Shown here piece after piece: positions 35,559-63,643 of a stretch of 64,000 nucleotides of DNA. The stretch is taken from the IMG/VR virus record IMGVR_UViG_3300035698_031678, positions 65,296-129,295 of that record. One strand, 5' to 3'. Source of the DNA: a virus. The position numbers were made by a program, and so were the translations under genes. The notes under the pieces were generated by a model that saw only the letters and a list, made by a program, of their open reading frames with translations, was not told the origin of the DNA and made no database searches. The stretch's first letter is position 1. The number at the start of each line of letters is the position of its first letter.

Positions 35559-37436
35559 CTATAGTTCAGGGTTTTTATCCTTTGCTAGCATATTTTTATT
35601 AATTTCCCAATCTTCTTCTGTCATGATGGATAATTTGTTAACCATAAGAAACTTGGGTGAAAATATTGGTTCTCTATTAGCATCCTGGAGTCTTTCATAA
35701 ATACTGTAATTCTCCATTTTAGCCTTTTCAAGTTCATACTCTTTAGCTAGCGTAAAGTATCCTTCTGTGTTAAAAACTATCTTAATAGAATTGTAAAACC
35801 CATTGTCTAAAGAAAGACTTGGGTCTAAAAGAACTGTATTTATGAATACTGTATTTTTTATAATTCTGGAAAATTCACTAGTGATTCTTCTACACCTTTT
35901 ATGGTAAGATATTTCGTCATGTGGTATTCCATCATTCTTGAACAATATCAAAGAACCACCACCATTAGAACCATCAAATCTATTACTAGGTCTAGTACTG
36001 TTTCTTTGAAGTCTCTTCTCAAAGTATTCTACCACTTCCATTTTACTCAAGTCTACTCCATTGTAGGAAACACTGTCTATTTGGGTTGTATTACCACTTC
36101 TGGAAGGCAGTGCGATGTTTCTACCAAATTTATAGTCAGCCTCACCATTTATAGTAACCTGACCACTCTTGGAATCTATAGCAACTTTTTCTTTGTACTG
36201 ACCAACCAATTTAGCTACTGCTTCTTTAGATTTAGTACCTAGTTTACTACCTGTAGGCACTACCATTTTAAGCCTGAATTGACCTACCATAATATTCCAA
36301 GCAACTCTAGACTCTTCTAGGCTTCTTTTCAGATTATAGTCTCTTTTAAGTGAATCTAAGTAACTAGAGTTGTTGTACTTACTATTACCAGAAACATTTC
36401 TCCATTCTATTAAACCAAATGAATTTTCTGGATAGTATTTGTATTTTCCTCTCTCATCAAGAGTTTTGTACATTAATACTATAGAACCATCTTCGTGAAC
36501 ACCATCAACCTTAGCTATTCTATAAGCGTTTACTCTTTTCATACCAATAATCTTGACTGGTATGTCGGTAACTTCTCGCTTTGGCAAATTTACCGTTTCT
36601 CTAATTTTGCTTTTTCTATTTCTTGATCCTTGTGATTCATTTAAATCTTCCAATTCGTCTTCCAGATCATTAAATCCTTCTTCACCATCAACAGCGTCTT
36701 CTTCAAGACCTTGCAAGGTTTTAGCAAACGCAAGTCTATTTTCACTTATTTTTTCTAAACCACTAAGTTTTTCATTTTCTTTTATAAGTGTTTTAGCAAC
36801 GATTTGATTAGACTCGCTTAGGTCTCTCATATTGTTCTTACCGTTAGGTAATATTTCGTTCAATTTAGATTCGTTTAGTCTAATCTTTTTGATGATTTTG
36901 TTTCTCTTATCGTCAAAATCTTTTCTATTTTGAGTTTCATATATGTTTTCATATGCAACTCTACCAATCAGCATAAAACTGTAAAAAACCATCCAAGCTG
37001 TTTGTTCCTTGTCAAATTCAAGAAAAGATAAAGTGGAATTAAATTCTGACCTTATTGTTTCTTTCATTTTATCACTGAAAGTAAATTTCTTTTCATTAAA
37101 TTCTATGTCACAAAATTCGTGATCGGTATCGTATACTATACAATCATCAACTATACCTTCTATGATGTTTTTTAATTCAACGTTTTCGTCTAGATAAAGT
37201 TTTATCTCTTCTTCATCAAACCATTGTTGTTCTCTAAGTTGTTGATTAGCTTCTTCTTCGTAAAAGGCTTCGTAGTGATTTAACTCGTCTGTAGTTTGAG
37301 AAAATTTTTTGGTCTTTTTAGAAAGTATTTGTTTATCTATGCCTACTTTAAAAATACCTCTAACGGAATCAGGTACTATAGATGTGTTGACTCTTCTTCC
37401 ATGAAGTCTTCTTCTATAATTATATCGATTGGTCAT
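35559..37436 (-). CDS. portal protein, T4 gp20-like, with a large internal insertion
   Basis: I.EGIVDD.IVYD, SYLDSLKR.YNLKRSLEE, P.R.G..TQID, YFEKRL....RPSNRF, DEI.Y. Confidence 0.8.
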   Translation of the reverse strand: MTNRYNYRRRLHGRRVNTSIVPDSVRGIFKVGIDKQILSKKTKKFSQTTDELNHYEAFYEEEANQQLREQQWFDEEEIKLYLDENVELKNIIEGIVDDCIVYDTDHEFCDIEFNEKKFTFSDKMKETIRSEFNSTLSFLEFDKEQTAWMVFYSFMLIGRVAYENIYETQNRKDFDDKRNKIIKKIRLNESKLNEILPNGKNNMRDLSESNQIVAKTLIKENEKLSGLEKISENRLAFAKTLQGLEEDAVDGEEGFNDLEDELEDLNESQGSRNRKSKIRETVNLPKREVTDIPVKIIGMKRVNAYRIAKVDGVHEDGSIVLMYKTLDERGKYKYYPENSFGLIEWRNVSGNSKYNNSSYLDSLKRDYNLKRSLEESRVAWNIMVGQFRLKMVVPTGSKLGTKSKEAVAKLVGQYKEKVAIDSKSGQVTINGEADYKFGRNIALPSRSGNTTQIDSVSYNGVDLSKMEVVEYFEKRLQRNSTRPSNRFDGSNGGGSLILFKNDGIPHDEISYHKRCRRITSEFSRIIKNTVFINTVLLDPSLSLDNGFYNSIKIVFNTEGYFTLAKEYELEKAKMENYSIYERLQDANREPIFSPKFLMVNKLSIMTEEDWEINKNMLAKDKNPEL

Positions 37437-45734: not shown

Positions 45735-47414
45735 ATGAAAGATTGGAAAATGGGTATCGATTGTCCTAATTGGGCAAACGACGATTATAAATTGATGATT
45801 CAAGATTATCTCTTAGAAGGCGAAACACCAGCTTTAGCGTATATCAGGGTAGCTGATTCTGCTGCTAATGAATTAGGTAAACCAGAAATGGCTAAAGATT
45901 TCTTGGAAGACATATGGAAAGGTTGGCTTTGCTTATCTAGTCCAGTCTTAGCTAATTCGGGTACAATAAGAGGTTTACCTATCAGTTGTTTTGGAATACA
46001 CTATCCTGATAGTACTAGTGGAATTGGCTTAAAATATCATGAGCTGATGATGATGAGTAAAGTTGGAGGTGGAGTTGGTCAAAAATTTACACCTATTAGA
46101 CCTGCTGGAACTCCTATTTCAGATATCGGTACTGCAGATGGGTCAATACCTTTTATGAAGATATCTGACACCATTGTTGAAAAAATGAAACAAGGTAAGG
46201 TCAGAAAAGCTGCTGGTTCTGCTAACCTTAACATAGAACACCCAGATTTTTTCAATGGATTCTTAGATGCTAGAAGAGGTAAAGGAGACATTTCTCTTCA
46301 ATTTCAAAAGATACATCAGTGTGCCGTAATAGATGATACTTTTATGGAAAAAGTTGCTGATACTAAATCTAATGAATTCAGAGACTTTGCTAGAGTTGTA
46401 AGAACAAGAATAGAGACTGGTGAGCCATTTATTTTATACGCAGATAATGCTAATAAAACTCTTCCAGCATGGTACAAAAATCGTGGTTTTAAAATAGACA
46501 TGACCAACATTTGTACAGAGATAATGCTTATGTGTGATGAAGACCACAGTTTTGTTTGCTGTTTAAGTAGTGTGAACTTATCAAAATACCACGAATGGAA
46601 AGACACTGGCTTTATTAAGAGAGCAATATACTTCTTAGATGGTGTCATGAGTGAGTTCATTAGAAAGGCTAAAAACTATAGAGGGTTAGAAGCTGCCACA
46701 AGGTTTGCTGAAAAAAGTAGGGCTTTAGGTCTTGGTGTTTTAGGATGGCACACTTTTCTAATACAAGAAAACTTACCTTTTACTCATTACTTAGCTAAAA
46801 GTTGGACTAATGAAATATTTGGTTATATTAAAGAACAAGCAGAAGAAGCTTCAGTTGAATTGGCTAAAATATTTGGTGAACCAGAATGGATGTATGGTTA
46901 TGGTAGAAGAAACAGCCATTTATTGGCTATAGCCCCTACTACTTCTAATGCCATTCTAAGTGGTGGTAAGTCTCCTAACCATGAACCTTACAAAGCGGTT
47001 TATTGGGCAGAGAGATCAGCTAAGGGATTGATCTACAGAAAGATTCCTATGTTTGAGAAATTGCTAGACGATTTAGGTGAAAACAAACCAGAAGTTTGGA
47101 GCAGCATCTTAAAATACAATGGTAGTGTTCAGCACTTGAAATTTTTAAATGCAGATCAGAAAAAACTCTACCTATCTTTTGTGGAAATAGATCAAAAAGA
47201 GCTTCTAATAGCAGCTGGTATAAGACAAACTTACATAGACCAAGGTATGAGTCTTAACCTTGCTTTTCCTTTAGATACTAAAGCTGTTGAGCTTATAAAG
47301 ATTCATTATCTAGCCTGGAAATTGGGTCTAAAAACTTTGTATTACTTACATAGTAACAGCGCTTTATCTGCAGATTTAATTGATATTGATAATTGCGGTA
47401 GCTGTGATGGATAG
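45735..47414 (+). CDS. nrdA: ribonucleotide reductase class I alpha subunit (short, no ATP cone)
   Basis: SSPVLAN, PISCF, TNICTEI, CCLSS, AIAPT, KTLYY and C-terminal CGSCDG. Confidence 0.95.
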   Translation: MKDWKMGIDCPNWANDDYKLMIQDYLLEGETPALAYIRVADSAANELGKPEMAKDFLEDIWKGWLCLSSPVLANSGTIRGLPISCFGIHYPDSTSGIGLKYHELMMMSKVGGGVGQKFTPIRPAGTPISDIGTADGSIPFMKISDTIVEKMKQGKVRKAAGSANLNIEHPDFFNGFLDARRGKGDISLQFQKIHQCAVIDDTFMEKVADTKSNEFRDFARVVRTRIETGEPFILYADNANKTLPAWYKNRGFKIDMTNICTEIMLMCDEDHSFVCCLSSVNLSKYHEWKDTGFIKRAIYFLDGVMSEFIRKAKNYRGLEAATRFAEKSRALGLGVLGWHTFLIQENLPFTHYLAKSWTNEIFGYIKEQAEEASVELAKIFGEPEWMYGYGRRNSHLLAIAPTTSNAILSGGKSPNHEPYKAVYWAERSAKGLIYRKIPMFEKLLDDLGENKPEVWSSILKYNGSVQHLKFLNADQKKLYLSFVEIDQKELLIAAGIRQTYIDQGMSLNLAFPLDTKAVELIKIHYLAWKLGLKTLYYLHSNSALSADLIDIDNCGSCDG

Positions 47415-47892: not shown

Positions 47893-49551
47893 TTAGATAA
47901 TGCTCTGACCAGAACCTTCTGTAACTGTAAACGTTAAATAGTTAAATCCAGGATTAGTACCCACTGAAGCTACTTGCGCTCTAGACTTAAGTACAGAAAC
48001 TTCGCTCATAGTACCTTCGGCAATAGTAGAGATAGTTTCACCCATGATGTAATTTATCATCTTGATTCCAGGCTCTTGATCAGTTCCCTTACGAGAAACC
48101 GAGATTCTAGCATCAGTAAGACCCATCATTGGATCTTCAAAAACATCCATTTTACGTAAAGTTCCAACCTGGTAAAGGTTATCGTTTTCGCTCAAGTTGT
48201 TCTCAAAAGGAGCATCTTGGAATCCACGAGTGTCTTGTAAAGCAGAACTTAGTCTACCATTGGTAGCAACCTTGTTAGCTTTACCTCTACGGTTTCTGTG
48301 ACCTACAACAGCAGAAGCGTATGTAAGACGTGAAACAATTCTACGTTGCATTGATGGCAAATTGTCACCATTTGTAGTAGAAATTAAAGCACCTGAAGCT
48401 TTTGGTAAACTTCTTTGAACATCATCCTCATCAAGATAAGTAGTTGTTGCTCCTTGCTCTGTTGCAGAAATGTGCAAGTTCAAGTTATCACCTGTAATAG
48501 CGTGAAAGTTTGCGTGATGTCCCCAACCTGTGTTGAATACCTTTGTGATAATTTCATCATTGAAAGATTGCTCTAACTCATTTGAAATTGCATCAAAAGC
48601 TAACTGTGCACCATCAATTCCTTCTTCCATAGCTAAGTCTTGTAACATCTCAACTGTATAACCAATTTTAACTTGGTAAGTACGCATTGAGAAGTTTTCA
48701 CTCCACTTAGTAAGACCCATTGAACGGTAACGTCCTGATTCTCCAGTTTCTCTAGAATTTCCAGTGCTTGACATACTACCATCACTACGATTAGCAGTAA
48801 ACGCATCTGTATCATCAAGACCAGCTCCAGAATATCCTTTGATAAAGTTAGTGTAAGCACCAACATAGTCTACTGTACTTGGATTGAAACCAATAAAGTT
48901 TCCAGCATCAGTAAAAATAGCAGCATCATTTACAGGAGTGTTAAGCAATGAAGCCAAAGCACCATTTCCTGTTACTGTTCCTACTCTAAAAATAGCGTGA
49001 CCTTTTGCTCTATCCTTACCTACGTAAGTAATCTTTAAAAGTTCATCACCATCATTGGCATCTTTTACAGTATATTCAGTACCAGCTGTTAATGCAGCAT
49101 TAGTACCAGTTTGAACGATAGCTACCTTAAACACATTAGGCATGTTATCAGCATCTGTTGCAGATAATTTACCGCCAGCGTAAATTGGCTCTACTACATT
49201 TACTACCATGTTTGACTTGGTAGATTGGATAGTAGGAATAAGATCCAAACCAACTGTGTTAGCGAATGAATCGATAAACACACCAAAAAGGCTGTCAAAC
49301 TGACCTTCACTACCTTTAGTGCTGTCTCCAGCTGCAGAAGGGTTATTACCAAGACTAAATGCTCCACGACCAGGTGTGTTAGCGGTTGTAGCTGCATTTT
49401 CATACATTCTACGAACTTGTGCTGCTTCACATAGTCTTTGCATCTTAGACTTAGAGATTTTACTTATACCCTTAGCTGCTAAGTGCTTTGAAATCTTTTT
49501 GTTCCAAGATTCAAATATTTTTTGTTTTACTAATTTATTTTTGAGATTCAT
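47893..49551 (-). CDS. major capsid protein, T4 gp23-like
   Basis: YTVEMLQDL...GIDG, ISNELEQSFNDEI, RRGKAN, VGTL....VFEDP, KSR; follows the protease/scaffold gene. Confidence 0.88.
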   Translation of the reverse strand: MNLKNKLVKQKIFESWNKKISKHLAAKGISKISKSKMQRLCEAAQVRRMYENAATTANTPGRGAFSLGNNPSAAGDSTKGSEGQFDSLFGVFIDSFANTVGLDLIPTIQSTKSNMVVNVVEPIYAGGKLSATDADNMPNVFKVAIVQTGTNAALTAGTEYTVKDANDGDELLKITYVGKDRAKGHAIFRVGTVTGNGALASLLNTPVNDAAIFTDAGNFIGFNPSTVDYVGAYTNFIKGYSGAGLDDTDAFTANRSDGSMSSTGNSRETGESGRYRSMGLTKWSENFSMRTYQVKIGYTVEMLQDLAMEEGIDGAQLAFDAISNELEQSFNDEIITKVFNTGWGHHANFHAITGDNLNLHISATEQGATTTYLDEDDVQRSLPKASGALISTTNGDNLPSMQRRIVSRLTYASAVVGHRNRRGKANKVATNGRLSSALQDTRGFQDAPFENNLSENDNLYQVGTLRKMDVFEDPMMGLTDARISVSRKGTDQEPGIKMINYIMGETISTIAEGTMSEVSVLKSRAQVASVGTNPGFNYLTFTVTEGSGQSII

Positions 49552-49607: not shown

Positions 49608-52600
49608 TTAAATTGAAAGAAGTGAATGTAGGTTAGGATTAACCATTTTCACCATTTCCATTAGGTCTTCTTTGGGCATTGATTCCATCATCTTATCACC
49701 TAAAACGATCTCTATCTCCTCTATCTCATCATCATCCGCACTCATGTAAGCCTCTAATTCTTCATCTGAAAGTTCACCTGTGTAGGGCTTATCGCTTACA
49801 AATTCTTTTTTCTCTGAATCTTCCACCTCTGAAATTCTAGCTTCAGGGCTTTCCATTTTAGATTTAGCTGCTTCAATAACATCTTGATTTTCCATCATGG
49901 TGTTATCCATTTCCATCATTTTATTAGCGTAAGTTTCCATAATATTCTTCATTTGCTTACTTTCTTCTTTCATTGATTCAGTCAACTCTACAAGCTTTCT
50001 TTTAATCAATTGATTTTCTTCAAACAAACCTCTTAGATTATGTTCGTTAGCATAGATAGATTTAGCAACATTTCTGTCTATGAATTTTTTCTTAGACTCA
50101 CTAAGTACAACTCTTGCAGAAACAATATTACCTTTTACATCATAATGGGTAGATTCCATCAAACCTTTCAATATACGGTTTTGTTTAATCTTGCTATCAG
50201 TAATTTTAGAAATTTTGCTTTTACACTCTTGCAATAAAACTTTTCCAAAAATATCTTTAGCTTTATCTAGTCCACCTTTAGCTCTCACTCTTTTAGCAAG
50301 CTTGTAAGCAGATTCCATTAAGCTAGTTTTATAAACTTTCTTACTTTCATTAATGCTTAGAATAGTCTTTGTGTCTGTTGCAAAAGCACCCTTCTTACGA
50401 AATTTTACCACTCTTTTAGATTCCGACATTACTACCAGGTTCTTTTGAGCCATAGCTACTTTAGAGTAATTTGACTTAGAAGCTTCGTTAAGCCCCATTG
50501 CAGTAGTGTTTATCATGCTTTTAGCATTTTCTAGGAATTCATCAACTAATTCTTCGCTAGAACGTATCTCAACATGCTCTGTTACAGTAGGCTCAAGTGT
50601 GCCATCCTGGTTTTCAGGTTTCATATCTTCGTTTAAACCTTTAGCACCACTTCTTAAATGAACTTTGAATTTGTCTTTGAATTCAGCATCCATTTTAGAT
50701 TGACTTGGCATTATAGCTTTAGATTCAGAAATATCTTGTAAAACTTCTTCACCTTTCTCTTCAGCTATGTCTTCCTCGTTAGTTTCATCTATCATGCAGC
50801 CTTTCTCTTCTGCCATCTTTTTAGCCTTTTTCTCATCGTAGTATAAGCCCATTTCCTCGCCTTTGTCGCTGTAAAGTGAATAAACTTTTCTATTCTCATT
50901 TAGACCCATTTCCTCTCTGTCAATGTTTGCATCCATGTCTTCTTTAAACATTTTAACAATATCATCTTGGCTTGGCATTACCGCCTTAGATTCGTCAAGA
51001 TCCGCACCACCTTGGTAAGATCCATACTCATCTAAAGAGACCATTGAATCAACATCTTCGGAATTAACTTCTATCATTATTCCAGAATTATCAAAAACGT
51101 GCTTCTCGTCAACAATACCTTTATATTGCGCATAAGCTTCAACATCACCTTTTTTAACCATGTAAGTTTGGTCTAGCTCTAGATCAATAGATTCATTCAA
51201 CTTTCCAGAAACTTCGTATCCGTCTTCTTGTGCAGCTGTATGTGCAGCATTTTCGCTAGGGTAACCATCATCTATTAAAACTCCTTTAGAACCATATATT
51301 GCCCAATTGTCTCCTGAACCTTCAATGGTAACTTTGCCACCAGCGTCTTCGTTAAGAATCCCTTTTTCCATTGCCACAATTTTGGCAATCATTTCTGGTA
51401 TAACATCAGAACCAAAGTCGTAATTTATTAGTAAGTGTTCTACACCACTATCTCCTATTTCTGCATAACCACCATTGGATTTTACATCCTTAAGAACTTT
51501 TTTAATATCTTCTTCTGTGTAAGCTTTTTTATAATAATCTCCTAAACCACTGGCATCTTCATTCATCTTACCATCTTCCATCTTCTTTCTTTGTGCTATC
51601 ATTTCTGGAGATTCAACGTCTTCGGAAACATCATGAATTTTAGCATACCTTTCGTATTCTTGACTGTATCCTTTTGCTAATAAAGTATCTTTAAGATCTT
51701 TTAAACTAAAATCTGAACCCAATTCTGTATTAAGCCATTTAAAGTTTTTGTTACCTTTTATAATATCTTTAAGCATTTTGTTCTGAACACCTTCGGAAAC
51801 ATCTTTTAGTTTATCTTCTACCATTTTAGTGTACTCGCTTAGTAGACCATATTCTTCTAAATCTTCCACTCCAAGATTAATATCACCAACTACTCCAGCA
51901 GATGTTATGGTCACTTTACCTGAATCATCTACGGTATAATTCACTTCTACGTCTCCATCAGGTGTGTCCTTGAGAATTGTTTTAGATTCATTTAGGTTTT
52001 TGTTACCTTCTAGTTTATCTTCTACCATTTTAGTGTACTCGCTTAGTAGACCATATTCTTCTAAATCTTCTACTCCAAGATTAATGTCACCAACTACTCC
52101 AGCAGATGTTATGGTCACTTTACCTGAATCATCTACGGTATAATTCACTTCTACGTCTCCATCAGGTGTGTCCTTGAGAATTGTTTTAGCTTCATTTAGG
52201 TTTTTCTTCTTTCTAAAAGTAGTGTTAGATTCATTGAGCATTGTAACTTCTAAATAATTGTAGTCAATATAATCAGCAATCCATTCTCTAACATCTTCCA
52301 TTTCATCACCTATTTCACCATCGTCATAATGATCATCACTAATAGGCGCACCTTCAAATACGATTGTACCCTTTTTAAACTCTAATGTAACATCACCAAA
52401 CTTTTGACCATCTTCATCTTCGTTAGTTATTTCTGATGTCACGTAGTCTCCTAATTTGTTGACAGCATCTTCAAACGCTGCATCTGAATCAATAATTTTA
52501 GACTCATTTAAATTTTTTCTTCTCATAACTGATTCGCTTAAATCACCTTTAATTTTATCAAAGTCGCTTTTTAAAAGCCATATTGCCATAGGGCTAGCAT

Positions 52601-55502
52601 CTTGTTGTGTAATAGCTTTTACACCATTAACTTCACCAATTGTTATTCCAGCCATAGTGTACTTGTCGTTGTCTATAGATTTGGTTTCTTTCCAATTAAG
52701 ACCAAATTCTCTGGCGTTTTCTATATTCCAAATTTCGTCTAAATCTCCAATTTCATAAATCATTATAAAATCTTTTGACCCAAGTTCTTTTTCTAGAAAT
52801 GATTTAAAATCGTTATAATCGCTATTATCAGCAAAAGCATCATTCCAATCTCCTGTTTTTAATCTGCTTTCGTTTAGATTTTTTCTGTTCATAACTGATT
52901 TGTTTTCTTTCAAACTAATATTTTCTTTTTTAGCATATTCTATTAAAGCTTTAGTTACTTTAGCAACATCATGACTTATATCTAGACCGTTGTTTTCGAA
53001 TTTATTAAGATTACCAAATTTTTCTATTTGGTATTTTACTCTAGAAACATTTTCCCCATTGTAATAATCATGAGCAATTTTTTCAGCAAAATTTTTATCA
53101 ATCTTAAATTGAGATAAGATATGACCCAATTTTTTCATCTTTTCATCAGACTCTAATTGTATATCTTCATTTAAGTTCCTTTTTCTAAGTTTACTCACTT
53201 TTTTTGCTTCGTGCATTTTTACTAGAGTTTTATTACCACTCATCTTTACAGCCTTAATAACATCTTCTACTTGTTTAGGCGTCATTTTTTCTAGGAAGTT
53301 TCCAGCAGTGTTTGATCCACCACCTGTAGCCATCATATCATCCCACTTTAAATTGGACATTTTTTCGATTTGCTCAACTAAGATATTAGCTTCACTATTA
53401 CCTAAACCAATTTCATCTAGAACGTCTTGGTTTTCTAGGTTGTTTATAATGTTAGAAAATTCTTTTGACTCGTTCATTCTGATTTTGTTTTTAGATATAG
53501 ACTTTCTTTTGTTTTCATCAAGATCTCTAAGTTTTCTCGATTTTATTCCAATGGCTTCTGCATCCGATTTTTTCATAATTATTTCTGAATGATAATCTGC
53601 AACTTCTATTGCGCTTCTATTATCAACCTTTACCATCTTGTAACTAATGTCGTACTCATCCCCATTCCAAGTTAAGTATTCTGTGTTATTATTAACAGGA
53701 ATACCATTTTTTGCCATTTCTTCAAAATCTAAACCAGATTCTGGGTCGCTTCCCAAAGAATATATTACAACAAATTCATTTCCTCCTAGAGTATTTTTAA
53801 TCATTTTTATGAACTCTGGAGCTTCTTGTATGGTGTGAAAAGTTTCTAATTTACCTGATTGTCCGTAAATCTTTAAGTTCCCTGATTGTATTTCCTCGTT
53901 CATTCTAATTTTGTTTTTAATATTTTTTGACTCGTTCAGTAAGCCCTTAGTATAACCATGTTCAAAGGCTGTTTCACCAAATTTTTTAAAATAAGGTAAT
54001 TCTTGGGTAAGAGTTTTCTCAAATGACATTCCTAAATCAAGGTTTTTCATCGTTTTTTTAATAGATGAAATAACACTTTCTGGTGTTAAATTGTCAAAGG
54101 TGTCAAAGGTGTCTTGGCTAATGCTATTTTTAACTAATGCTAGGTTGTTTTTATTAGCAGATTCATTTAATGCAGCTATCTTTGATTCGTTTAATTCGTA
54201 GTCAAAACCAAATTTTTTCTTAAGCTGTTCTATTGCATGAGATCTACCTTCTATGTGATCTTTATGACCTGGGCTTGTTTCTAAATCAGAATTATATTCT
54301 TCTATAGTGTCAATAAGCTCTCTACCTTCTTTGTCAGCTAATACTTGTTTGAAAGTAGAATCTTCTGACATGTTGGTTTTTTTACTTTCTGAAAGTCCCA
54401 TAATTGCTTCAATTTCGTTTTCGTTTAATTTTACTTTATTACTAACCTCTAAACTATAGTTACTTCTGTTAGGCACGTGGTTATCTATGTCGAAGTATTT
54501 CGATTGATTGTACACTTTCAAAATTTCTAAGTCTGGAAACTTCTCTAAAACTTTACGTTTTAGCAAATCATCAGGTATCATGTCTAATGTCTTAAGGGCA
54601 TGCTTTCTAGTAAGTATGGATGTTTTTACTGTTACTGATTTATCAGATATGGATACCTCTACTTCTATGGGTTTTCTTAGGTAACCACTAATAACATCTT
54701 CGAATACTTCGCCTAAATCTTTTGCGCTATTAACTAGTTTGTTAAATTTTGTTATTGCTAATTTGTTGTTGTTATAAGCTTCTTTTGCTGATGGTGTTAT
54801 TAAAGTAGAAACGCTTTCATTAAGATTGAATTTTACCAATTTTTTGTTGTGATCCATTCTTTTCTTAACGTTCTTAAGTTCGCTTTCATTAACCTCAACT
54901 ATTGCTGTGTTTCCTCTTTCCTCTATAGGGTTTAATTTAGCAAAAGTAAATCCTGGTGTAGAAACTATGTCTATTGTAAAAATTGTGTCTATAGTAGCTT
55001 TTTCCGTATCTTCATCAAAATATCCTATAGCTCTAGTGCTAACGCTTAGAGTACCACCATTATTGATTATGGCTAATGCGTCTATTCCACCACCTATAAC
55101 TGTTGGTATTATTTTTATTCTTACGTAAACACGATTCTCATCTTCTTTGTACCACAACTTGGTGATTATGTGAGAAACCTCTTTCATAGAGATTTCGTAA
55201 TTATCATCATGGTTTAATGCACCAAATAACCTTCTTTCTTCAATCCAAGGTTGCAAATACTCTACTTGTTCTAGGTATTCTTCTTTGCTATACCATCTGC
55301 CATTCTCATTAGTACCATCTTCTGCTGACTCACCAAATACGGCTAGTGGTGCTTCCAGTGTGATAGACTGATCATTTACAGGAGAAAGATCTAGTCCAGC
55401 ATTTTCATAGAGCTTTACATTTTGTAATTTTTCTGTCTTAATCCTTTTTAAAGGAGAAGAAGATTGCTCAAATAACCAAACTAATTTTTTATTTTCAGGC
55501 AT
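49608..55502 (-). CDS. prohead protease (gp21-like) fused to a multi-module region and a C-terminal scaffold-like region
   Basis: N-terminal NENGRWY, GALNH (His), VSH.I, SVSTRAIG (Ser), DIVSTPGF; directly upstream of the capsid gene. Confidence 0.85.
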   Translation of the reverse strand: MPENKKLVWLFEQSSSPLKRIKTEKLQNVKLYENAGLDLSPVNDQSITLEAPLAVFGESAEDGTNENGRWYSKEEYLEQVEYLQPWIEERRLFGALNHDDNYEISMKEVSHIITKLWYKEDENRVYVRIKIIPTVIGGGIDALAIINNGGTLSVSTRAIGYFDEDTEKATIDTIFTIDIVSTPGFTFAKLNPIEERGNTAIVEVNESELKNVKKRMDHNKKLVKFNLNESVSTLITPSAKEAYNNNKLAITKFNKLVNSAKDLGEVFEDVISGYLRKPIEVEVSISDKSVTVKTSILTRKHALKTLDMIPDDLLKRKVLEKFPDLEILKVYNQSKYFDIDNHVPNRSNYSLEVSNKVKLNENEIEAIMGLSESKKTNMSEDSTFKQVLADKEGRELIDTIEEYNSDLETSPGHKDHIEGRSHAIEQLKKKFGFDYELNESKIAALNESANKNNLALVKNSISQDTFDTFDNLTPESVISSIKKTMKNLDLGMSFEKTLTQELPYFKKFGETAFEHGYTKGLLNESKNIKNKIRMNEEIQSGNLKIYGQSGKLETFHTIQEAPEFIKMIKNTLGGNEFVVIYSLGSDPESGLDFEEMAKNGIPVNNNTEYLTWNGDEYDISYKMVKVDNRSAIEVADYHSEIIMKKSDAEAIGIKSRKLRDLDENKRKSISKNKIRMNESKEFSNIINNLENQDVLDEIGLGNSEANILVEQIEKMSNLKWDDMMATGGGSNTAGNFLEKMTPKQVEDVIKAVKMSGNKTLVKMHEAKKVSKLRKRNLNEDIQLESDEKMKKLGHILSQFKIDKNFAEKIAHDYYNGENVSRVKYQIEKFGNLNKFENNGLDISHDVAKVTKALIEYAKKENISLKENKSVMNRKNLNESRLKTGDWNDAFADNSDYNDFKSFLEKELGSKDFIMIYEIGDLDEIWNIENAREFGLNWKETKSIDNDKYTMAGITIGEVNGVKAITQQDASPMAIWLLKSDFDKIKGDLSESVMRRKNLNESKIIDSDAAFEDAVNKLGDYVTSEITNEDEDGQKFGDVTLEFKKGTIVFEGAPISDDHYDDGEIGDEMEDVREWIADYIDYNYLEVTMLNESNTTFRKKKNLNEAKTILKDTPDGDVEVNYTVDDSGKVTITSAGVVGDINLGVEDLEEYGLLSEYTKMVEDKLEGNKNLNESKTILKDTPDGDVEVNYTVDDSGKVTITSAGVVGDINLGVEDLEEYGLLSEYTKMVEDKLKDVSEGVQNKMLKDIIKGNKNFKWLNTELGSDFSLKDLKDTLLAKGYSQEYERYAKIHDVSEDVESPEMIAQRKKMEDGKMNEDASGLGDYYKKAYTEEDIKKVLKDVKSNGGYAEIGDSGVEHLLINYDFGSDVIPEMIAKIVAMEKGILNEDAGGKVTIEGSGDNWAIYGSKGVLIDDGYPSENAAHTAAQEDGYEVSGKLNESIDLELDQTYMVKKGDVEAYAQYKGIVDEKHVFDNSGIMIEVNSEDVDSMVSLDEYGSYQGGADLDESKAVMPSQDDIVKMFKEDMDANIDREEMGLNENRKVYSLYSDKGEEMGLYYDEKKAKKMAEEKGCMIDETNEEDIAEEKGEEVLQDISESKAIMPSQSKMDAEFKDKFKVHLRSGAKGLNEDMKPENQDGTLEPTVTEHVEIRSSEELVDEFLENAKSMINTTAMGLNEASKSNYSKVAMAQKNLVVMSESKRVVKFRKKGAFATDTKTILSINESKKVYKTSLMESAYKLAKRVRAKGGLDKAKDIFGKVLLQECKSKISKITDSKIKQNRILKGLMESTHYDVKGNIVSARVVLSESKKKFIDRNVAKSIYANEHNLRGLFEENQLIKRKLVELTESMKEESKQMKNIMETYANKMMEMDNTMMENQDVIEAAKSKMESPEARISEVEDSEKKEFVSDKPYTGELSDEELEAYMSADDDEIEEIEIVLGDKMMESMPKEDLMEMVKMVNPNLHSLLSI
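51807..52204 (-). repeat. near-perfect 204-bp (68-aa) tandem duplication inside the protease polyprotein
   Basis: NLNE[A/S]KTILKDTPDGDVEVNY...EYTKMVEDKL occurs twice. Confidence 0.95.
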
Positions 55503-55633: not shown

Positions 55634-56557
55634 ATGAATGAAATAAAGATTGGTAGGTTGAAAGGCTTAAGAAATACTAACGAAGATTATTGCAAAGAAG
55701 GGGTAATAATAGCTAACAACGAGTTTGTTTACAATGCGCTAGACCTTAAGCCATCTGATGTAAATAAGGATTTTATCATTAACACTTTATCTAAAATCTG
55801 TAGATACACTGGTCATTTTGGTCAGCAAAATAGCAGTACCGCTGGCGCTATATATTCTGTCGCTCAACATTCTGTAAAAATGGCTGAAGCCTGCTTGTTG
55901 GTAACTGGTGACCCTAAAAAAGCTATGGAATGCCTTTGGCATGATGCTGCAGAAGCTTATTTTGGTGATATCATATCACCCATAAAGCTAAAATTTAAAG
56001 ACCAAATTAAACCTCTTGAGATAAAATTAGAAATTGTTATTTTCAAAGTTCTTGGCATAGATTTTCCTTTGGGAGATCATGTTAAACACATTGATCTAAA
56101 CATTACAGAGTATGAAATGGACACCATGATTTTTAATGACATGAACGTAGCTGATCCAGGTTACTACTGGAGTCCACACATATCTTTTATTAGATTTATA
56201 AACATGGACAATAAACTCAATTCATTATTAAGGCATTCTGAAAAAGATTTGGTTGTAGGAAGAATGACTCACGCATCTTTAGAAACCATATCAAAAAAAC
56301 CATTAGATAATTTAATTAAAGAAGACGCTTCTAGATCAAATGAGTGTTACATGTTAACATCATTAAAACTTACAATGTGTTTAGAAGAATTAGGGTATTC
56401 ACACTCACAGTCTGGTAATTCTTCTGGAGTTTTAAGGAATTGGCTTCACATAGACAGAAAAGAAAAAACCTACACTAACGTACATAAATTCAAAGTTGAT
56501 GAAGATAAACCTTCACTAGGTTCTGTAGAAGAACTTACTGATTGGGATCTTGGTTAG
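55634..56557 (+). CDS. HD-domain 5'-deoxynucleotidase (YfbR/YfdR-like) with C-terminal extension
   Basis: LSKICRYTGH, YSVAQHSV and LWHDAAEAYFGDIISPIK motifs. Confidence 0.8.
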   Translation: MNEIKIGRLKGLRNTNEDYCKEGVIIANNEFVYNALDLKPSDVNKDFIINTLSKICRYTGHFGQQNSSTAGAIYSVAQHSVKMAEACLLVTGDPKKAMECLWHDAAEAYFGDIISPIKLKFKDQIKPLEIKLEIVIFKVLGIDFPLGDHVKHIDLNITEYEMDTMIFNDMNVADPGYYWSPHISFIRFINMDNKLNSLLRHSEKDLVVGRMTHASLETISKKPLDNLIKEDASRSNECYMLTSLKLTMCLEELGYSHSQSGNSSGVLRNWLHIDRKEKTYTNVHKFKVDEDKPSLGSVEELTDWDLG

Positions 56558-56753
56558 GTAATTCGTTTTTAAATTTTTCTAGACTTTCTTCAACAACTCT
56601 ATTAGTTTCTTCTGCCAATTTTTCGGAAAGTTCTGAGGCTAATTCACTAATAGAGTCGTTTACCGTTATATTATCCGTAGCATTAAAACCAAAAACTACT
56701 TTGTATATTTCGGTAAGATTTTCTTTATGTTTTACTTTATCAAAATATTCCAT
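56535..56753 (-). CDS. small hypothetical protein coupled to the gp5-like gene
   Basis: 72 aa, stop/start overlap. Confidence 0.5.
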   Translation of the reverse strand: MEYFDKVKHKENLTEIYKVVFGFNATDNITVNDSISELASELSEKLAEETNRVVEESLEKFKNELPNQDPNQ

Positions 56754-57568
56754 TAGTCTATTGTGTTTACTTTACTTTTCGTCTTTGGCACTTTACTAGA
56801 AAAAACTTTGTTGCTTATAGGGTTAGCTTTTGCTGACAGTTCTGATAAAGCAAACCCTGGTGACAATGGCGCTAATATTGCTACCTTTGAAGTTATTTCT
56901 TTTTGAATTTTTGAAGATGTTTCTATATCTTTATTTATCTTTTCTATGGCTTTCCATAATTCTTTAAGTTGTTCTTCATTTTTATCACCTAACACTGAAG
57001 GCTCAGAACTACCATCTAAACTACCTAGAGATATCTTGTCAGAAACTACACTTACAGAGTTTTCGTTCATTACAACTTTTCTCTGACCTTCATTAAAATT
57101 TAATGTAATTTTTTGCTCTTCTTTAGATATGTTAATTGTTTCTTTACCTAAGTTTATTACAATTCCTTTTTTTCTACTGTAGCTAATATTTACTTCTTCC
57201 TCTTTATCATAAAGAACGCTCTTATATCCTTCATAATCTTCTTTTAGTAGTTCTATTAAATCATCACTAACACTTTCCCAACTTCTGTATCTGCCATGAT
57301 TAATGTCTTTACTAAACCATACTAAGACTTTTTCCCCTAATTTAGGAGTATGAAATGTGTCGTGGTGTGGAAATTCTGGGTATATCCAAGGTAATTTTTC
57401 TGGGTCTAAAGAGAATGTTCCATCAATGTTACCAAAAACGCCTTTTATGTTTACCTTTATTCTTCCTTCCTTGTTAGGATCATCTATGTTTATTATCTCA
57501 GCTTCGTGATCTCTGTTTACTATTTCTGTCATAGATTGACCACTTCTTGATTCCAGAACTTTGCTCAT
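56753..57568 (-). CDS. baseplate spike protein, gp5/VgrG OB-fold
   Basis: DDPNKEGRIKV...LPWIYP...PKLGEKVLVWF, beta-helix-like strands, EPSVLGD. Confidence 0.8.
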   Translation of the reverse strand: MSKVLESRSGQSMTEIVNRDHEAEIINIDDPNKEGRIKVNIKGVFGNIDGTFSLDPEKLPWIYPEFPHHDTFHTPKLGEKVLVWFSKDINHGRYRSWESVSDDLIELLKEDYEGYKSVLYDKEEEVNISYSRKKGIVINLGKETINISKEEQKITLNFNEGQRKVVMNENSVSVVSDKISLGSLDGSSEPSVLGDKNEEQLKELWKAIEKINKDIETSSKIQKEITSKVAILAPLSPGFALSELSAKANPISNKVFSSKVPKTKSKVNTID

Positions 57569-57591
57569 AAAATATATATCAAAACACTAGA

Positions 57592-59454
57592 ATGAACTCT
57601 ACAAAGAACTACATTAGATTAGGAGAATATTTTTTACTAGAGTTTACTGGGAAAGAAAAGGAATTAAATACTTCTAACAATCAAATTATTTCTTATGCTG
57701 GTAAAGATGGTAGTATTTATATACTTAACGAACCCGATTCTTTAGACAATACCAGGAACACAGAACACAATCTTGTTTTTGACATGCCTGTCACAGACGT
57801 TATATCAGACATAAATGAAGGTAGATCATTTTCTAGGCTAAACCCTGATGAATTTGTAAAAACGACAAATACCTTAAGCGGATTACTGTCTTACGACCAA
57901 ATAAAACTACACATTAGGACTGGATACAACTTTCAGGATTCAGAAGGATTTAGACTAAGCTTATTTTTGGAATCAGCTTTAGGGCACAGAGTTAATCTTC
58001 TTTCTCAATCTTTTCTTAAAGGTAATATTAATGAATACGGTTACAACGAATTCCCACTAAGCATTTCGGAACAAACTTATGATAAATTTATAGAATTTAA
58101 CACTATAAGTATATCTAAATTACTCTTAGAAACTTCTTCAGAAAGAACTATAGTTAATAGCATATCTAGCTACAATAGTAATCCTTTTTTATTTATGGAA
58201 TTTAGGGTTATAGAGAGCGTAGTTGATCTTGGAGGATACAGAGGGATAGATTACTCCAACACAATAGAAAACTTTATACCAGCTGGAGACCCTTTTGAAA
58301 ATTTAACTGCAGACATATTAGAAAAAGAAAGCTATTTCCAATACAAAGCTAGTTTCGAAGGTTCAAGCGTAGAGGATTTCATATTTTCTTTAAATTCTAA
58401 TCCTTCTAACAATTATGCTCTTGAACATGAGATAAATGTCTTTGAGCAAAGAGGAACTATATTTGAACACGTAGAAAGAGTTATACAATTACAGTACACG
58501 AATTTTGACAGGGTTTATAAATACAGACCAGTACTTTCCAATTTTGTTGATGGTTCTATGCAAGTTGAATACACTCTTAGATTGGTCAATAGAAACGATG
58601 GATTAAGCGTGGTTAAAACAGCTTCCATAAACAGCACTAATACACAATTATATCTAGAAACTCCTTTTAGAATAAGTGTAGAAGGGGTAACCCAATTTAG
58701 TGTTTACAACAAAGTTTTTAAGAACGAAATAAATGTCGGTAGTTCTGTAAAGCAATTTGATAACCAGGTTTTGATACCAATGTATTTGGATAAAAAGACC
58801 ATAGTTATGAAAAGTGAACCTTTTGCTTTAGATGTTTCTCCATTTACAAATATTTACGAGATAAATCTTCTAGAAGAGATAAATGGTCAAGAAATACCAT
58901 ACTTTCCTGAAAACCTTGTTAGTCATGAAATGGTTTTTGTAATCAATGGAGTAGAAGAAATTTCTATAGTAGAAAATAAAGATCAAGAAAACAATGGTTT
59001 ACTGTATTTTAAGATTACTGAAGATAAAGCTAAGGTAATAACTTCTAAGAACAAAGGTATAGTTTACATAAATTCAGTAAAAAATGGTGTTAGGACTAAT
59101 CTTACTAGTGGAGAGTGGGCTAAAGAAGGTTATGAAGTTAAAATACCAGTAATATTAGATCTAGTTAAGCAAATAAAGACTATGGAAGAGGTTATATTGC
59201 CTATAGAACCTATAACCGCTTCATTTACTCAAGAAAGCGCTGACGTAATATTACCTACAAACGCAACTATAGAAACAAACATTCAAGAAATTCAGAATAA
59301 TCAAATAACCGCTACTGTAATAGAAAATAAAATTATTAAAGAGAATAATGAAAAAATAATTAAGGTAGTTAACGATGGCAACAACTTATTCCTTGAAAGA
59401 ATTAAAAAACAACTGTTAAGAAACAATATGAAATTTATAGAAGACGTTAGTTAA
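57592..59454 (+). CDS. putative virion structural protein
   Basis: 620-aa beta-rich ORF among structural genes. Confidence 0.45.
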   Translation: MNSTKNYIRLGEYFLLEFTGKEKELNTSNNQIISYAGKDGSIYILNEPDSLDNTRNTEHNLVFDMPVTDVISDINEGRSFSRLNPDEFVKTTNTLSGLLSYDQIKLHIRTGYNFQDSEGFRLSLFLESALGHRVNLLSQSFLKGNINEYGYNEFPLSISEQTYDKFIEFNTISISKLLLETSSERTIVNSISSYNSNPFLFMEFRVIESVVDLGGYRGIDYSNTIENFIPAGDPFENLTADILEKESYFQYKASFEGSSVEDFIFSLNSNPSNNYALEHEINVFEQRGTIFEHVERVIQLQYTNFDRVYKYRPVLSNFVDGSMQVEYTLRLVNRNDGLSVVKTASINSTNTQLYLETPFRISVEGVTQFSVYNKVFKNEINVGSSVKQFDNQVLIPMYLDKKTIVMKSEPFALDVSPFTNIYEINLLEEINGQEIPYFPENLVSHEMVFVINGVEEISIVENKDQENNGLLYFKITEDKAKVITSKNKGIVYINSVKNGVRTNLTSGEWAKEGYEVKIPVILDLVKQIKTMEEVILPIEPITASFTQESADVILPTNATIETNIQEIQNNQITATVIENKIIKENNEKIIKVVNDGNNLFLERIKKQLLRNNMKFIEDVS

Positions 59455-59678
59455 CGTTCTATATCTTCAACGTTTTTTGACCTGTAGTTTAAACTAAGCT
59501 TGATTTTTGTAACTTCATCTATCCAAGACTGTATTATATTCTCTAATTTAATTATAAAACCACTCATTCTAGAATTATTTAATATTCTAGGTGATAAAGA
59601 ATTAGACAATATTCTGCCTCTGTAATTATCTTTTTTCCCACTAAATCTTACTATATGTCTTTCGTATTTTGTACTCAT
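59451..59678 (-). CDS. small hypothetical protein
   Basis: 75-aa ORF filling the gap. Confidence 0.5.
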   Translation of the reverse strand: MSTKYERHIVRFSGKKDNYRGRILSNSLSPRILNNSRMSGFIIKLENIIQSWIDEVTKIKLSLNYRSKNVEDIER

Positions 59679-59692
59679 TTAATATATATTTT

Positions 59693-60835
59693 ATGGCGTT
59701 AGATAAACATAAAGAAGCTTTTAAGTCAATTTCGACTAGCACATTCGATAAAGAAAATGGTTTTAGTTCTAAGTTCTTTATGGAGGATCCTAGTTATTTA
59801 CACTATTCTCTGTTTATTGACATGTCTTCGCCTTTACTAAATCCAGTAAACGCCAAAGGGGAAAGCGCAGAAAGATATTTTAAAAGAAGAGGAGATAAAG
59901 ATAGAGTTAACGCTGTTATAGATTTCAGAGATAGGCTAATAAATTTACTAGAAAAAACGCCCTACCTTATGCGTTCTATAAACGGTCTTGAGAACATTCT
60001 TGATTACAATGCAGAACAATTTCATTTAGAAAGAGAACTAGAAATAGAAACCTACGAAACTACTGATCAGAGGATTAATTCACTTGCTAAATTATACACA
60101 TTTATAGTGTATGATTGGAAGTATAACAGGAAAATGCTACCAGATAATCTAGAGTGGATAAACATACAAATAATAATCAACGATTGTAGAAATCTTGTAA
60201 AATTTGTTGATTCTGGTGAACAAGGTGAATTAGTTTCCATAGATTCCTTTATACCTACCACAGTTTTAGATTTTTATCACAGCGCATTTGATTTTACCAA
60301 GTCTTTTAAAGGGTTAAATGGTATAAACAATTCAGAACCAACTGTTTTAGATAATTCTTTTAGAATAAAAACTGGTAAATTTACCATGAAATCTAGTAAC
60401 ATTAAAATAAATTCCGAAGAACTATCTAAAAGCATAGTTGATTATTCCAATCCAGCCCCATTAGCTGGTAAGAAAACCCTTATTCAAAAAGGTGTGGATG
60501 CCGCTATAGAACTTGGTAAGAAAGAGGCAATAAGATTAAGACAAGAGCCAGGAAGATTAAGAGATGATGCTACCACTGCTGCTACTGATAGAATAAAGGC
60601 AAAAGCGTTTGAACTGGCTAATTATAACGTTCATTACAGGGGTCAAGCTCCAGAGCCATTCAGGTTAATTACAGGTCAGCAGTCTTCTGGGCAGATTTCA
60701 CCAGATTTTAGAGGTAATGAAATGAAAGAGATACTAGATAAAGACAAAGTGAAAAGTCTTTCTGAAGATTATACGAAAAATCAGAGACAAGAAATCATAA
60801 ATAGTATAATTAACAAACAAAACCTGGAATTCTAG
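59693..60835 (+). CDS. putative tube/baseplate-associated structural protein (gp54-like)
   Basis: EDPSYL, LEIETYET.D.RI..L..LY, YDW......LPDNL. Confidence 0.45.
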   Translation: MALDKHKEAFKSISTSTFDKENGFSSKFFMEDPSYLHYSLFIDMSSPLLNPVNAKGESAERYFKRRGDKDRVNAVIDFRDRLINLLEKTPYLMRSINGLENILDYNAEQFHLERELEIETYETTDQRINSLAKLYTFIVYDWKYNRKMLPDNLEWINIQIIINDCRNLVKFVDSGEQGELVSIDSFIPTTVLDFYHSAFDFTKSFKGLNGINNSEPTVLDNSFRIKTGKFTMKSSNIKINSEELSKSIVDYSNPAPLAGKKTLIQKGVDAAIELGKKEAIRLRQEPGRLRDDATTAATDRIKAKAFELANYNVHYRGQAPEPFRLITGQQSSGQISPDFRGNEMKEILDKDKVKSLSEDYTKNQRQEIINSIINKQNLEF

Positions 60836-62704: not shown

Positions 62705-63643
62705 ATGAATGTCAAAGTAGTAACACAGAAATTGATCTCCTTAGGTTTTAAAGATGTTAAAAGTTTTGAAAAAGATGGTGGAATAATGTTTACTGGTAGA
62801 AATCCTAAAAGCCTTTCTATCAATGATAATTTTATAGAACTCAACACTAGAGAAGGTAAAATTGATGGAAAAGACGTTGTAATTAATATGTCCGAATCTA
62901 AAGTTCAACTTACAAGAATACAACTATACGAACTATCTCCTCACCCAGAGTTGATTAAAGAAGGTATGAGGGTAACCATAGACCACAAGTCGTTTGGTGA
63001 AATATCTGTCATAGTTACTAAGTTGAAGAGATATGATTCTTCTAATGCTTTAGATGGAATATATTGGAAATCTACTAAAAAAGGTATAATGGGGTTTGCT
63101 TCTTTTGACTCTATTAAAAGGTATTACAATCCAAGTAGCTCTGGTCAAGGTAAAGACCCGAAAAGTTGGGATAACCATGCCGATAGAGCAAGGTTGGGAT
63201 ATGTAAACGAGTCTAAAACTTTTGAAAAATTCACACACATTAGTAATATAGATAAGGTTAATAAGAACACAGCGTTTATAACTGACAAAGATGGTGTTAG
63301 ACTTCACAAAACTCCCATAACTATGGAAGATGCTAGGTTTGTGATTGACGAAGCTAGAACTGGAAATACTGGCATGCTAAAAGAGGTGCTAAATGAATCT
63401 AAAGTTCAACATAAAGCTGGCAGCACTGTTATAGATGTTGAAAAAAATAGCGATAATAACTTTACAGTAACAGTAAATGATGATGAGGATCAAAAATTCA
63501 CATTTGGTAGTTTTATTGAAATGAACAAGTTTTTTATTAGCGCCAGTGATCCTGAAAACAACAATATTAACAGTCAAGTTAGGAGAGAGCTTTGGAACGC
63601 TTATAATACAGGACTAGACTTCAAGATTAACGAATTAAGATAA
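62705..63643 (+). CDS. putative head-internal polyprotein
   Basis: MSESK, VNESK and LNESK motifs separate four segments; TAAATA upstream. Confidence 0.55.
   Translation: MNVKVVTQKLISLGFKDVKSFEKDGGIMFTGRNPKSLSINDNFIELNTREGKIDGKDVVINMSESKVQLTRIQLYELSPHPELIKEGMRVTIDHKSFGEISVIVTKLKRYDSSNALDGIYWKSTKKGIMGFASFDSIKRYYNPSSSGQGKDPKSWDNHADRARLGYVNESKTFEKFTHISNIDKVNKNTAFITDKDGVRLHKTPITMEDARFVIDEARTGNTGMLKEVLNESKVQHKAGSTVIDVEKNSDNNFTVTVNDDEDQKFTFGSFIEMNKFFISASDPENNNINSQVRRELWNAYNTGLDFKINELR

Follow-up and report, generated by a model that had tools for sequence, protein, structure and literature searches.

The prohead protease gp21 of phage T4 cleaves after the glutamate of L/I-X-E, cuts the proteins of the prohead core repeatedly, and trims short propeptides from the proteins that are retained (PMC9026906; this paper and PMC10052503 are cited throughout from excerpts). 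The protease of phage SPN3US cleaves after A/S/G-X-E, favours Ser at P1′ (the first residue after the cut), removes its own C-terminal propeptide of 64 amino acids (aa), and also processes the portal protein (PMC10052503). Here, I analyzed 64,000 nucleotides of the IMG/VR virus record IMGVR_UViG_3300035698_031678 (positions 65,296 to 129,295), hereafter called the window. The parent record is a complete genome of 129,295 base pairs (bp) with direct terminal repeats, and the window is its second half. It was found that a single open reading frame (ORF) of the window, free of internal stops, begins with a gp21-type protease and continues as a very long chain punctuated by L-N-E motifs. As judged from sequence comparison, the ORF probably encodes a self-processing polyprotein that unites the protease, core, and scaffold of the prohead in a T4-related phage lineage infecting Bacteroidota. 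Behind the protease, the chain runs through about 17 modules with L-N-E↓S-type motifs between them (the arrow marks the predicted cut) and ends in a domain conserved among relatives. Its parts are as follows.

49608..55502, minus strand: whole ORF, 1964 aa, comprising a protease, a cassette array, and a scaffold-like tail
54885..55502, minus strand: protease domain, residues 1-206, gp21/S77-type, with His98 and Ser155
54816..54884, minus strand: short basic linker, residues 207-229, between VEVNE↓S (E206) and FNLNE↓S (E229)
50484..54815, minus strand: variable cassette array, residues 230-1673, about 15 larger modules of 52-142 aa
51803..52205, minus strand: tandem duplication with a period of 204 bp, 2.0 copies, and 97% matches
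50097..50483, minus strand: net basic region, residues 1674-1802, in which MSE↓S, INE↓S, LME↓S, and LSE↓S lie close together
49611..50096, minus strand: C-terminal domain, residues 1803-1964, common to six other long protease fusions

The initial annotation, made by a model from the letters alone, had proposed a gp21-type protease carrying GALNH and SVSTRAIG, and this identification held. Peptidase_S77 (PF03420) matches residues 63-167 with 29.3 bits, just over the cut-off of 27, and reached 32.8 bits, again above the cut-off, in a Pfam scan of the whole genome. The PHROGs family phrog_207 (head maturation protease) matches residues 64-254 with an expectation (E) value of 1.9e-25, and T4 gp21 (5jbl) was the sole PDB sequence match to the protease end (E 0.0077). 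GALNH lies at residues 94-98 and SVSTRAIG at residues 153-160. His98 aligns with the LN-A-PP position and Ser155 with the V-A-SRG position of the 5jbl chain, two positions that I take to be catalytic and to have been mutated for the crystal structure. Both residues are invariant in all eight aligned homologues. By the score threshold as well as by the aligned His and Ser, the domain is a member of Peptidase S77. Likewise invariant in eight of eight are L10-x-E12 and L31-x-E33, which may be N-terminal processing sites and are reminiscent of the LIE motif near the N terminus of gp21 (PMC9026906). VEVNE↓S at E206 and FNLNE↓S at E229 are candidate sites for freeing the protease from the chain; NLNE at the E229 position is present in the consensus of eight homologues.

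About 20 [LMVI]-N-E motifs had been noticed in the ORF, and I counted 21 (Leu in 16, Met in three, Val in one, and Ile in one), against 3.9 ± 1.9 in 5000 shuffled sequences with a maximum of 12. The four-letter form [LMVI]NE[SADN] occurs 20 times, against 1.08 ± 1.04 with a maximum of 7 in as many shuffles. Thus, the shuffling check proposed in the initial annotation speaks for enrichment. There are 27 NE dipeptides, and L, M, V, or I precedes 21 of them. These sites have the consensus L(16/21)-N-E↓S(12/21)-K(7/21), with Ser at P1′ and Lys at P2′. The S-E-S variants mentioned earlier were also found, as 13 [LMVI][ST]E sites including LSES three times, MSES, and ISES. Under a relaxed pattern, 33 sites divide the chain into 34 pieces of 8-206 aa. 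The claim that the motifs sit in basic linkers is true of part of them: at least two Lys or Arg lie within the seven residues before P3 (the hydrophobic position) at 11 of the 21 sites, where about 0.96 are expected, and at least three at seven sites.

Is the motif common in the other proteins of this phage? The density of [LMIV]NE[SADNG] is 10.2 per 1000 aa in the polyprotein and 0.81 elsewhere in the genome, where 143 other crude ORFs (39,478 aa) served as the control and contain 32 occurrences. Of these, 23 fall in the five proteins below, and the other nine are scattered over about 36,250 aa.

685-aa protein: strict motif count 9
1357-aa protein: strict motif count 8
248-aa protein: strict motif count 2
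gp20-like portal protein: strict motif count 2
312-aa ORF at 62705-63643: strict motif count 2

A frequency no higher than in non-head proteins was named in the initial annotation as speaking against it; the density here exceeds that of the other ORFs. The motif seems to be restricted to a few, head-associated proteins of the genome. Since the form with a hydrophobic residue at P3, Glu at P1, and Ser at P1′ matches that of S77 proteases, a cleavage site is the preferred reading of the motif. The earlier proposal of a gp21-type protease fused to a long motif-punctuated chain thus stands, and the motif fits the L/I-X-E rule of gp21 (PMC9026906).

The C terminus had been described as acidic, helical, and like a scaffold. 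The acidity holds for residues 1872-1940 (net charge −17) but not for the pieces covering residues 1674-1871, which together sum to +20; a long helix at residues 1802-1881 is predicted in an AlphaFold2 model of low confidence. The final 70 residues or so align in seven of seven proteins with the pattern sKPyl..Ls..Qi....iE..Lg.... followed by a hydrophobic tail. For the preceding residues 1674-1802, no relatives were found by an iterated profile search of a set of 153 proteins and the genome. I propose that the C-terminal domain is a scaffold or shell-binding end, on the basis of its position, its conservation, and the low-confidence helix prediction. There is no scaffold gene between the polyprotein and capsid genes here, at the related loci L007 and L008, or in the Chryseobacterium phage MA9V-2. 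Among the homologues P0010-P0038, many protease fusions of 600-800 aa share a tail of the LGY(S/D)xDDID..L type, unlike the tail of this subgroup. It may be a second kind of shell-binding end.

Is a long protease fusion exceptional? When residues 1-230 were searched exhaustively, 1557 representative proteins matched at E ≤ 0.001. Among the best 150 of them, 15 are at least 1000 aa long, 124 are 500-999 aa, two are 350-499 aa, and nine are shorter than 350 aa (median 649, maximum 1765). Since 139 of these best 150 homologues are fusions of at least 500 aa, the fusion is the norm for the clade, and uniqueness of the architecture was rejected. The word giant, used in the initial annotation, is right insofar as the 1964-aa polyprotein is the longest among the relatives examined, but it is the longest in a clade where long protease fusions are the rule. 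The label jumbo phage was dropped, as the complete genome has 129,295 bp (129 kb). For the 141 homologues that reach 350 aa or more, the extension carries a median of 5.5 motifs per 1000 aa; the density is at least 5 per 1000 aa in 79 of them, the count exceeds that of each of 300 shuffles in 52, and 17 have no motif.

The best named relative is ORF140 of the Flavobacterium phage MaF61, annotated as a putative prohead scaffold (1404 aa), with 54% identity over the first 228 aa only. In MA9V-2, MA9V2_209 (1207 aa), annotated as a prohead core protein serine protease, lies directly upstream of the capsid gene and contains INES, FNES, ANES, and LNEA motifs. MaF61 was cultured on Flavobacterium sp. 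B330 and MA9V-2 on Chryseobacterium indologenes MA9; the phage studied here belongs to a lineage of Flavobacterium phages. Metagenomic relatives span 1004-1765 aa, including proteins of 1667, 1446, and 1540 aa. A scan for related loci with alignment A1 as the query gave four loci, while the single protease domain as the query gave none. At L007, the gene of the 1667-aa protein (P0004) is followed directly by a capsid gene 64% identical to that of this phage, and at L008 a 1395-aa gene is followed by a capsid gene 47% identical to it. Megablast of the polyprotein gene against phage records gave no match.

In the Sphingomonas phage PAU, the equivalent position is occupied by separate genes, annotated in the record as protease, scaffolding, and internal capsid protein. 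The protease of PAU has 246 aa and a tail rich in LMES, LNED, LLES, LNER, and LYES. The internal capsid protein gp154 (L003:7861-8283, plus strand) begins MKTISKLYEAKLNE↓AS; this short leading peptide closes with the motif (KLNE↓AS) and resembles the capsid-targeting sequence of T4. Because PAU has separate genes at the same position, the fused gene looks like a protease, core proteins, and a scaffold joined as one chain.

Between the two ends, the chain varies. The initial annotation had seen modules between the motifs, and this was borne out: the pieces range from 8 to 206 aa, with larger ones of 48-142 aa. In the array (residues 230-1673), the larger modules are split by [LMI]-[NS]-E↓[SADN] and short, often basic linkers. 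Sixteen pieces of this region are at least 45 aa long; three have a positive net charge, one is neutral, and 12 are negative (to −21). A Pfam scan of 16 separate modules found nothing below E 0.006 and nothing near the cut-off, and a query of the ESM Atlas with residues 537-678 gave no usable match and no model. In the iterated profile search mentioned above, in which 17 modules were compared with these 153 proteins and with the remainder of the genome, five modules had relatives, as listed below, and the other twelve had none in the searched set.

Residues 230-361: P0004
Residues 679-779: P0014
Residues 1105-1172: the tandem twin and P0004
Residues 1438-1536: P0004 (twice), P0005, P0007, and P0008
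Residues 1803-1964: P0002, P0004, P0005, P0006, P0007, and P0008

Thus, in the orthologue comparison that had been suggested earlier, the ends are conserved and most middle modules differ between relatives. The 204-bp tandem duplication copies one module from NLNE to NLNE (residues 1105-1172 and 1173-1237, both beginning immediately behind NLNE), of which P0004 carries a single copy with about 50% identity. With E values of about 1e-4 to 1e-7, one module family is common to the polyproteins of MaF61 and P0004 and to the separate 1357-aa protein of this genome, which hints that cassettes may move between carriers. In 22 high-scoring segment pairs (HSPs) between different proteins, 27% of the 88 ends are no more than 5 aa away from a strict motif, against 11.8% at random positions (maximum 22.7% in 2000 trials). 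The support for homology break-points at the motif is real but modest. Modules 537-678 and 879-990 show a weak likeness (E 0.001 over one 32-aa stretch), and their paralogy is not claimed. No shorter proteins related to residues 230-1730 were found by a word-based search, which can miss distant relatives.

If the motif is a cleavage site, other proteins of the head may be substrates as well. Three candidates lie in the window.

47893..49551, minus strand: gp23-like major capsid protein, candidate propeptide site RRMYE51↓NA
35559..37436, minus strand: gp20-like portal protein, four motif sites at residues 187-267, candidate substrate
62705..63643, plus strand: 312-aa ORF with NMSE↓SK, YVNE↓SK, and VLNE↓SK, candidate further substrate

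The capsid protein (552 aa, PF07068 at 1.5e-15) is encoded on the same strand, 56 bases downstream of the polyprotein gene. The sites at the propeptide position are RRMYE↓NA here, RKLFE↓SA in L007, RKIYE↓SV in MaF61, and KKFLE↓AA in L008. The portal protein (PF07230 at 1.1e-41) has RLNE↓S, DLSE↓S, KISE↓N, and DLNE↓S in a charged stretch; it may undergo internal processing, or a long stretch may be removed from its N terminus as in the SPN3US portal. The motifs of the 312-aa ORF delimit four pieces, for which no family match was found.

Two proteins encoded outside the window extend this set. The 1357-aa protein (L006:1317-5390, minus strand; genome positions 56316-60389) has eight strict and 15 relaxed sites and begins with two near-identical N-terminal modules (80.6% identity over 72 aa). 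Its NUDIX domain (PF00293, 3.4e-16, residues 893-999) lies between DLSE↓A (residues 877-879) and HLNE↓A (residues 1035-1037). Since a NUDIX domain is framed by the motifs in this protein, the motif is able to bound a genuine domain, and the protein is a candidate for a head-packaged enzyme polyprotein. The 685-aa protein (L005:1035-3092, plus strand) is the densest of the genome, with nine strict sites or 13.1 per 1000 aa. It has an acidic GEEGEEGEE run near its N terminus, and neither Pfam nor PHROGs gave a family for it; it may be one more protein of the core or scaffold.

The observations suggest the following scheme. The conserved C-terminal domain would act as the scaffold end and bring the entire chain into the prohead core during assembly. 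As one chain would be carried in, the protease and all modules would enter in equal numbers and would need no targeting peptides of their own. After closure of the shell, the protease would cut after the Glu of the motifs. It would act on its own chain, at 21 strict or about 33 relaxed sites, and also on the propeptide of the capsid protein, the insert of the portal, and a small number of further core proteins. Much of the scaffold would exit the head, together with the short basic linkers. As for the modules of 50-140 aa, I lean to a mixture, in which part would be expelled and part retained and delivered with the DNA. The middle of the gene may evolve through duplication, gain, and loss of cassettes, often at a motif.

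Several results weigh against this scheme. No scaffold match was found for the C-terminal domain in Pfam, PHROGs (queried with the last 291 aa), or the PDB, where a sequence search with the C terminus gave chance-level myosin matches only. The domain has no similarity to gp152 of PAU, and stand-alone shorter relatives of residues 1780-1964 were not found by a word-based search. At the propeptide site of the capsid protein, P2 is Tyr or Phe instead of Asn, so that strict L-N-E would not be the sole substrate form. AlphaFold2 runs on single sequences gave a mean predicted local distance difference test (pLDDT) score of 38.0 for residues 207-1104 and 38.9 for residues 1105-1964, with three and 14 residues at 70-90 and none at 90 or above, which indicates neither folding nor disorder. 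On a charge-hydropathy plot, 14 of the 19 non-protease pieces fall on the disordered side and five on the folded side, many of them near the line, and the true protease domain itself is only just on the folded side. The median distance of HSP ends to the motif is 29.5 aa, against 26.7 at random, and the 34% of ends within 10 aa are inside the random range (maximum 35%). In MaF61, the polyprotein and capsid genes are about 7.6 kb apart, with five genes in between. The literature searched gave no data on cleavage, packaging, or virion proteins for this phage or its relatives.

A serious rival accepts the same polyprotein and the same cleavage but takes the middle as expendable core or scaffold mass; its modules would do no more than fill out and shape the prohead, would be cut up, and would leave entirely before or during DNA packaging, so that nothing is delivered. 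I regard this as possible, short of the scheme above. T4 offers a precedent, as gp22, gp67, and gp68 are for the most part removed after cleavage into multiple fragments (PMC9026906), and the long propeptides of SPN3US are cut several times and cleared (PMC10052503). The mostly acidic or neutral modules would suit expulsion by the incoming DNA, the charge-hydropathy values of 14 of the 19 pieces point the same way, no module has a known Pfam family, and rapid turnover of modules fits weak constraint. On the other hand, several modules are about 40-55% identical in distant relatives with differing neighbours, which argues for a selected structure. Many pieces are free of sites over 90-142 aa and exceed typical expelled peptides, and the same motif frames an enzyme in the 1357-aa sister protein. 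Nor does the length of the polyprotein track genome size, with 1964 aa for 129 kb, 1404 aa for 168 kb, and 1207 aa for 219 kb (three genomes).

The initial annotation had gone further in the opposite direction and suggested that the modules could be ejected anti-defence or host-takeover factors. They would be loaded via the protease-scaffold chain, freed, and delivered with the DNA, and any small domain placed between L-N-E↓S linkers would ride into the capsid in a fixed number. This is possible but unsupported, and I consider it less likely than not. If it is true, cassette turnover would record an arms race, the addressing would be unlike that by the T4 targeting peptide, and a polyprotein strategy would exist in a double-stranded DNA phage.

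It seems improbable that L-N-E is instead a repeated linker or binding element of a protein that stays intact, a single giant internal or inner-body protein to which a protease is attached. Such a role would agree with the preference for Asn at P2, which is not described for T4 (L/I-X-E) or SPN3US (A/S/G-X-E) in the excerpts of PMC9026906 and PMC10052503. However, the motif has the S77 pattern at P3, P1, and P1′, its relaxed form is found at the capsid propeptide position in four of the four relatives compared, and it is limited to a few proteins of the genome and kept in relatives with differing modules. That the long ORF is an artefact, such as an assembly chimera or several genes read through, is very hard to believe: no supporting evidence was found, the frame is uninterrupted, and there are independent long orthologues in MaF61 (1404 aa), MA9V-2 (1207 aa), P0004/L007 (1667 aa), and L008 (1395 aa).

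The rest of the neighbourhood may be described briefly. The G+C content across the window is 29-37%. A 559-aa ORF (45735-47414, plus strand) lies directly past the capsid gene. The opposite flank of the polyprotein ORF encodes an HD-domain nucleotidase and a baseplate protein. The gene of the HD-domain protein (55634-56557, plus strand) adjoins the polyprotein gene and is divergent to it. Its matches, phrog_318 at 3.3e-31 and PF13023 at 4.3e-05, are to families of deoxyribonucleoside 5′-monophosphate phosphatases. The head-gene neighbourhood of MaF61 includes a gene annotated as putative ribonucleoside reductase alpha, and nucleotide-metabolism genes are apparently interspersed among the head genes here as they are in MaF61. 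A scan for promoters and terminators gave no excess over shuffles (28 promoters observed against 31.4 expected).

If the chain is cut as predicted, capsid loading would have been solved by gene fusion instead of targeting peptides. One promoter and one chain would then give a fixed stoichiometry of the protease, the scaffold, and a set of changeable small proteins. A rule for spotting head-packaged proteins in uncultured phages would follow, namely that modules are framed by the motif of the phage's own protease, and the clade is large and mostly uncultured. It would also suggest a natural way in which capsids could be loaded with foreign proteins. No description of a protease-fused cassette polyprotein was found in the literature searched, and the main texts of the MaF61 and MA9V-2 papers contain no occurrence of "protease" or "scaffold".

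How does the polyprotein compare with the known systems? It is like the T4 prohead core in having an S77 protease, cleavage (predicted here) after Glu in a hydrophobic-X-E motif, and an N-terminal propeptide on the capsid protein (PMC9026906). In T4, core proteins are also cut at many sites, and proteins loaded with the core are freed by the protease (PMC9026906). The T4 protease, the scaffold, and the internal proteins (IPI-III and Alt) are separate genes, and cargo is addressed by an N-terminal targeting peptide of about 10 aa. Here, the protease, the modules, and the scaffold-like end are in one chain, and the addressing would be by covalent linkage. P2 is nearly always Asn, and no sequence similarity to T4 was found beyond the protease. 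The internal proteins of T4 are small and basic, whereas the modules are mostly acidic or neutral, with three of the 16 pieces of residues 230-1673 net positive; being internal to one ORF, the modules have no N-terminal targeting peptide of their own, although a motif stands in front of each. Residues 1674-1964 show no sequence or profile similarity to a gp22-type scaffold in Pfam or PHROGs, or to gp152 of PAU.

In lambda C/Nu3, P2 gpO, and herpesvirus UL26/UL26.5, an N-terminal protease is joined to a C-terminal scaffold that contacts the shell, and self-cleavage frees the protease. These chains, of a few hundred residues, are cut once or a few times and lack a cassette array. In contrast, the two ends are separated here by about 1450 residues of variable modules and by at least 21 motif sites. 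The distinctive feature is that the protease itself and a conserved C-terminal end are both fused to the chain.

The phages phiKZ, 201phi2-1, and SPN3US (gp175, gp268, and gp245, respectively) also have a diverged homologue of gp21 and many cuts after Glu, and they have a protease with a C-terminal propeptide, a processed portal, and many proteins that are packaged and ejected (PMC10052503, PMC9026906). Unlike the present case, the motif there is A/S/G-X-E, and the substrates are separate genes with N-terminal propeptides. The C-terminal propeptide of the SPN3US protease has 64 aa (PMC10052503), against an extension of about 1750 aa here. The closest likeness is to ORF140 of MaF61 and MA9V2_209, which have the same architecture and the same motif but are shorter, and whose middle modules are mostly unrelated to those of this polyprotein.

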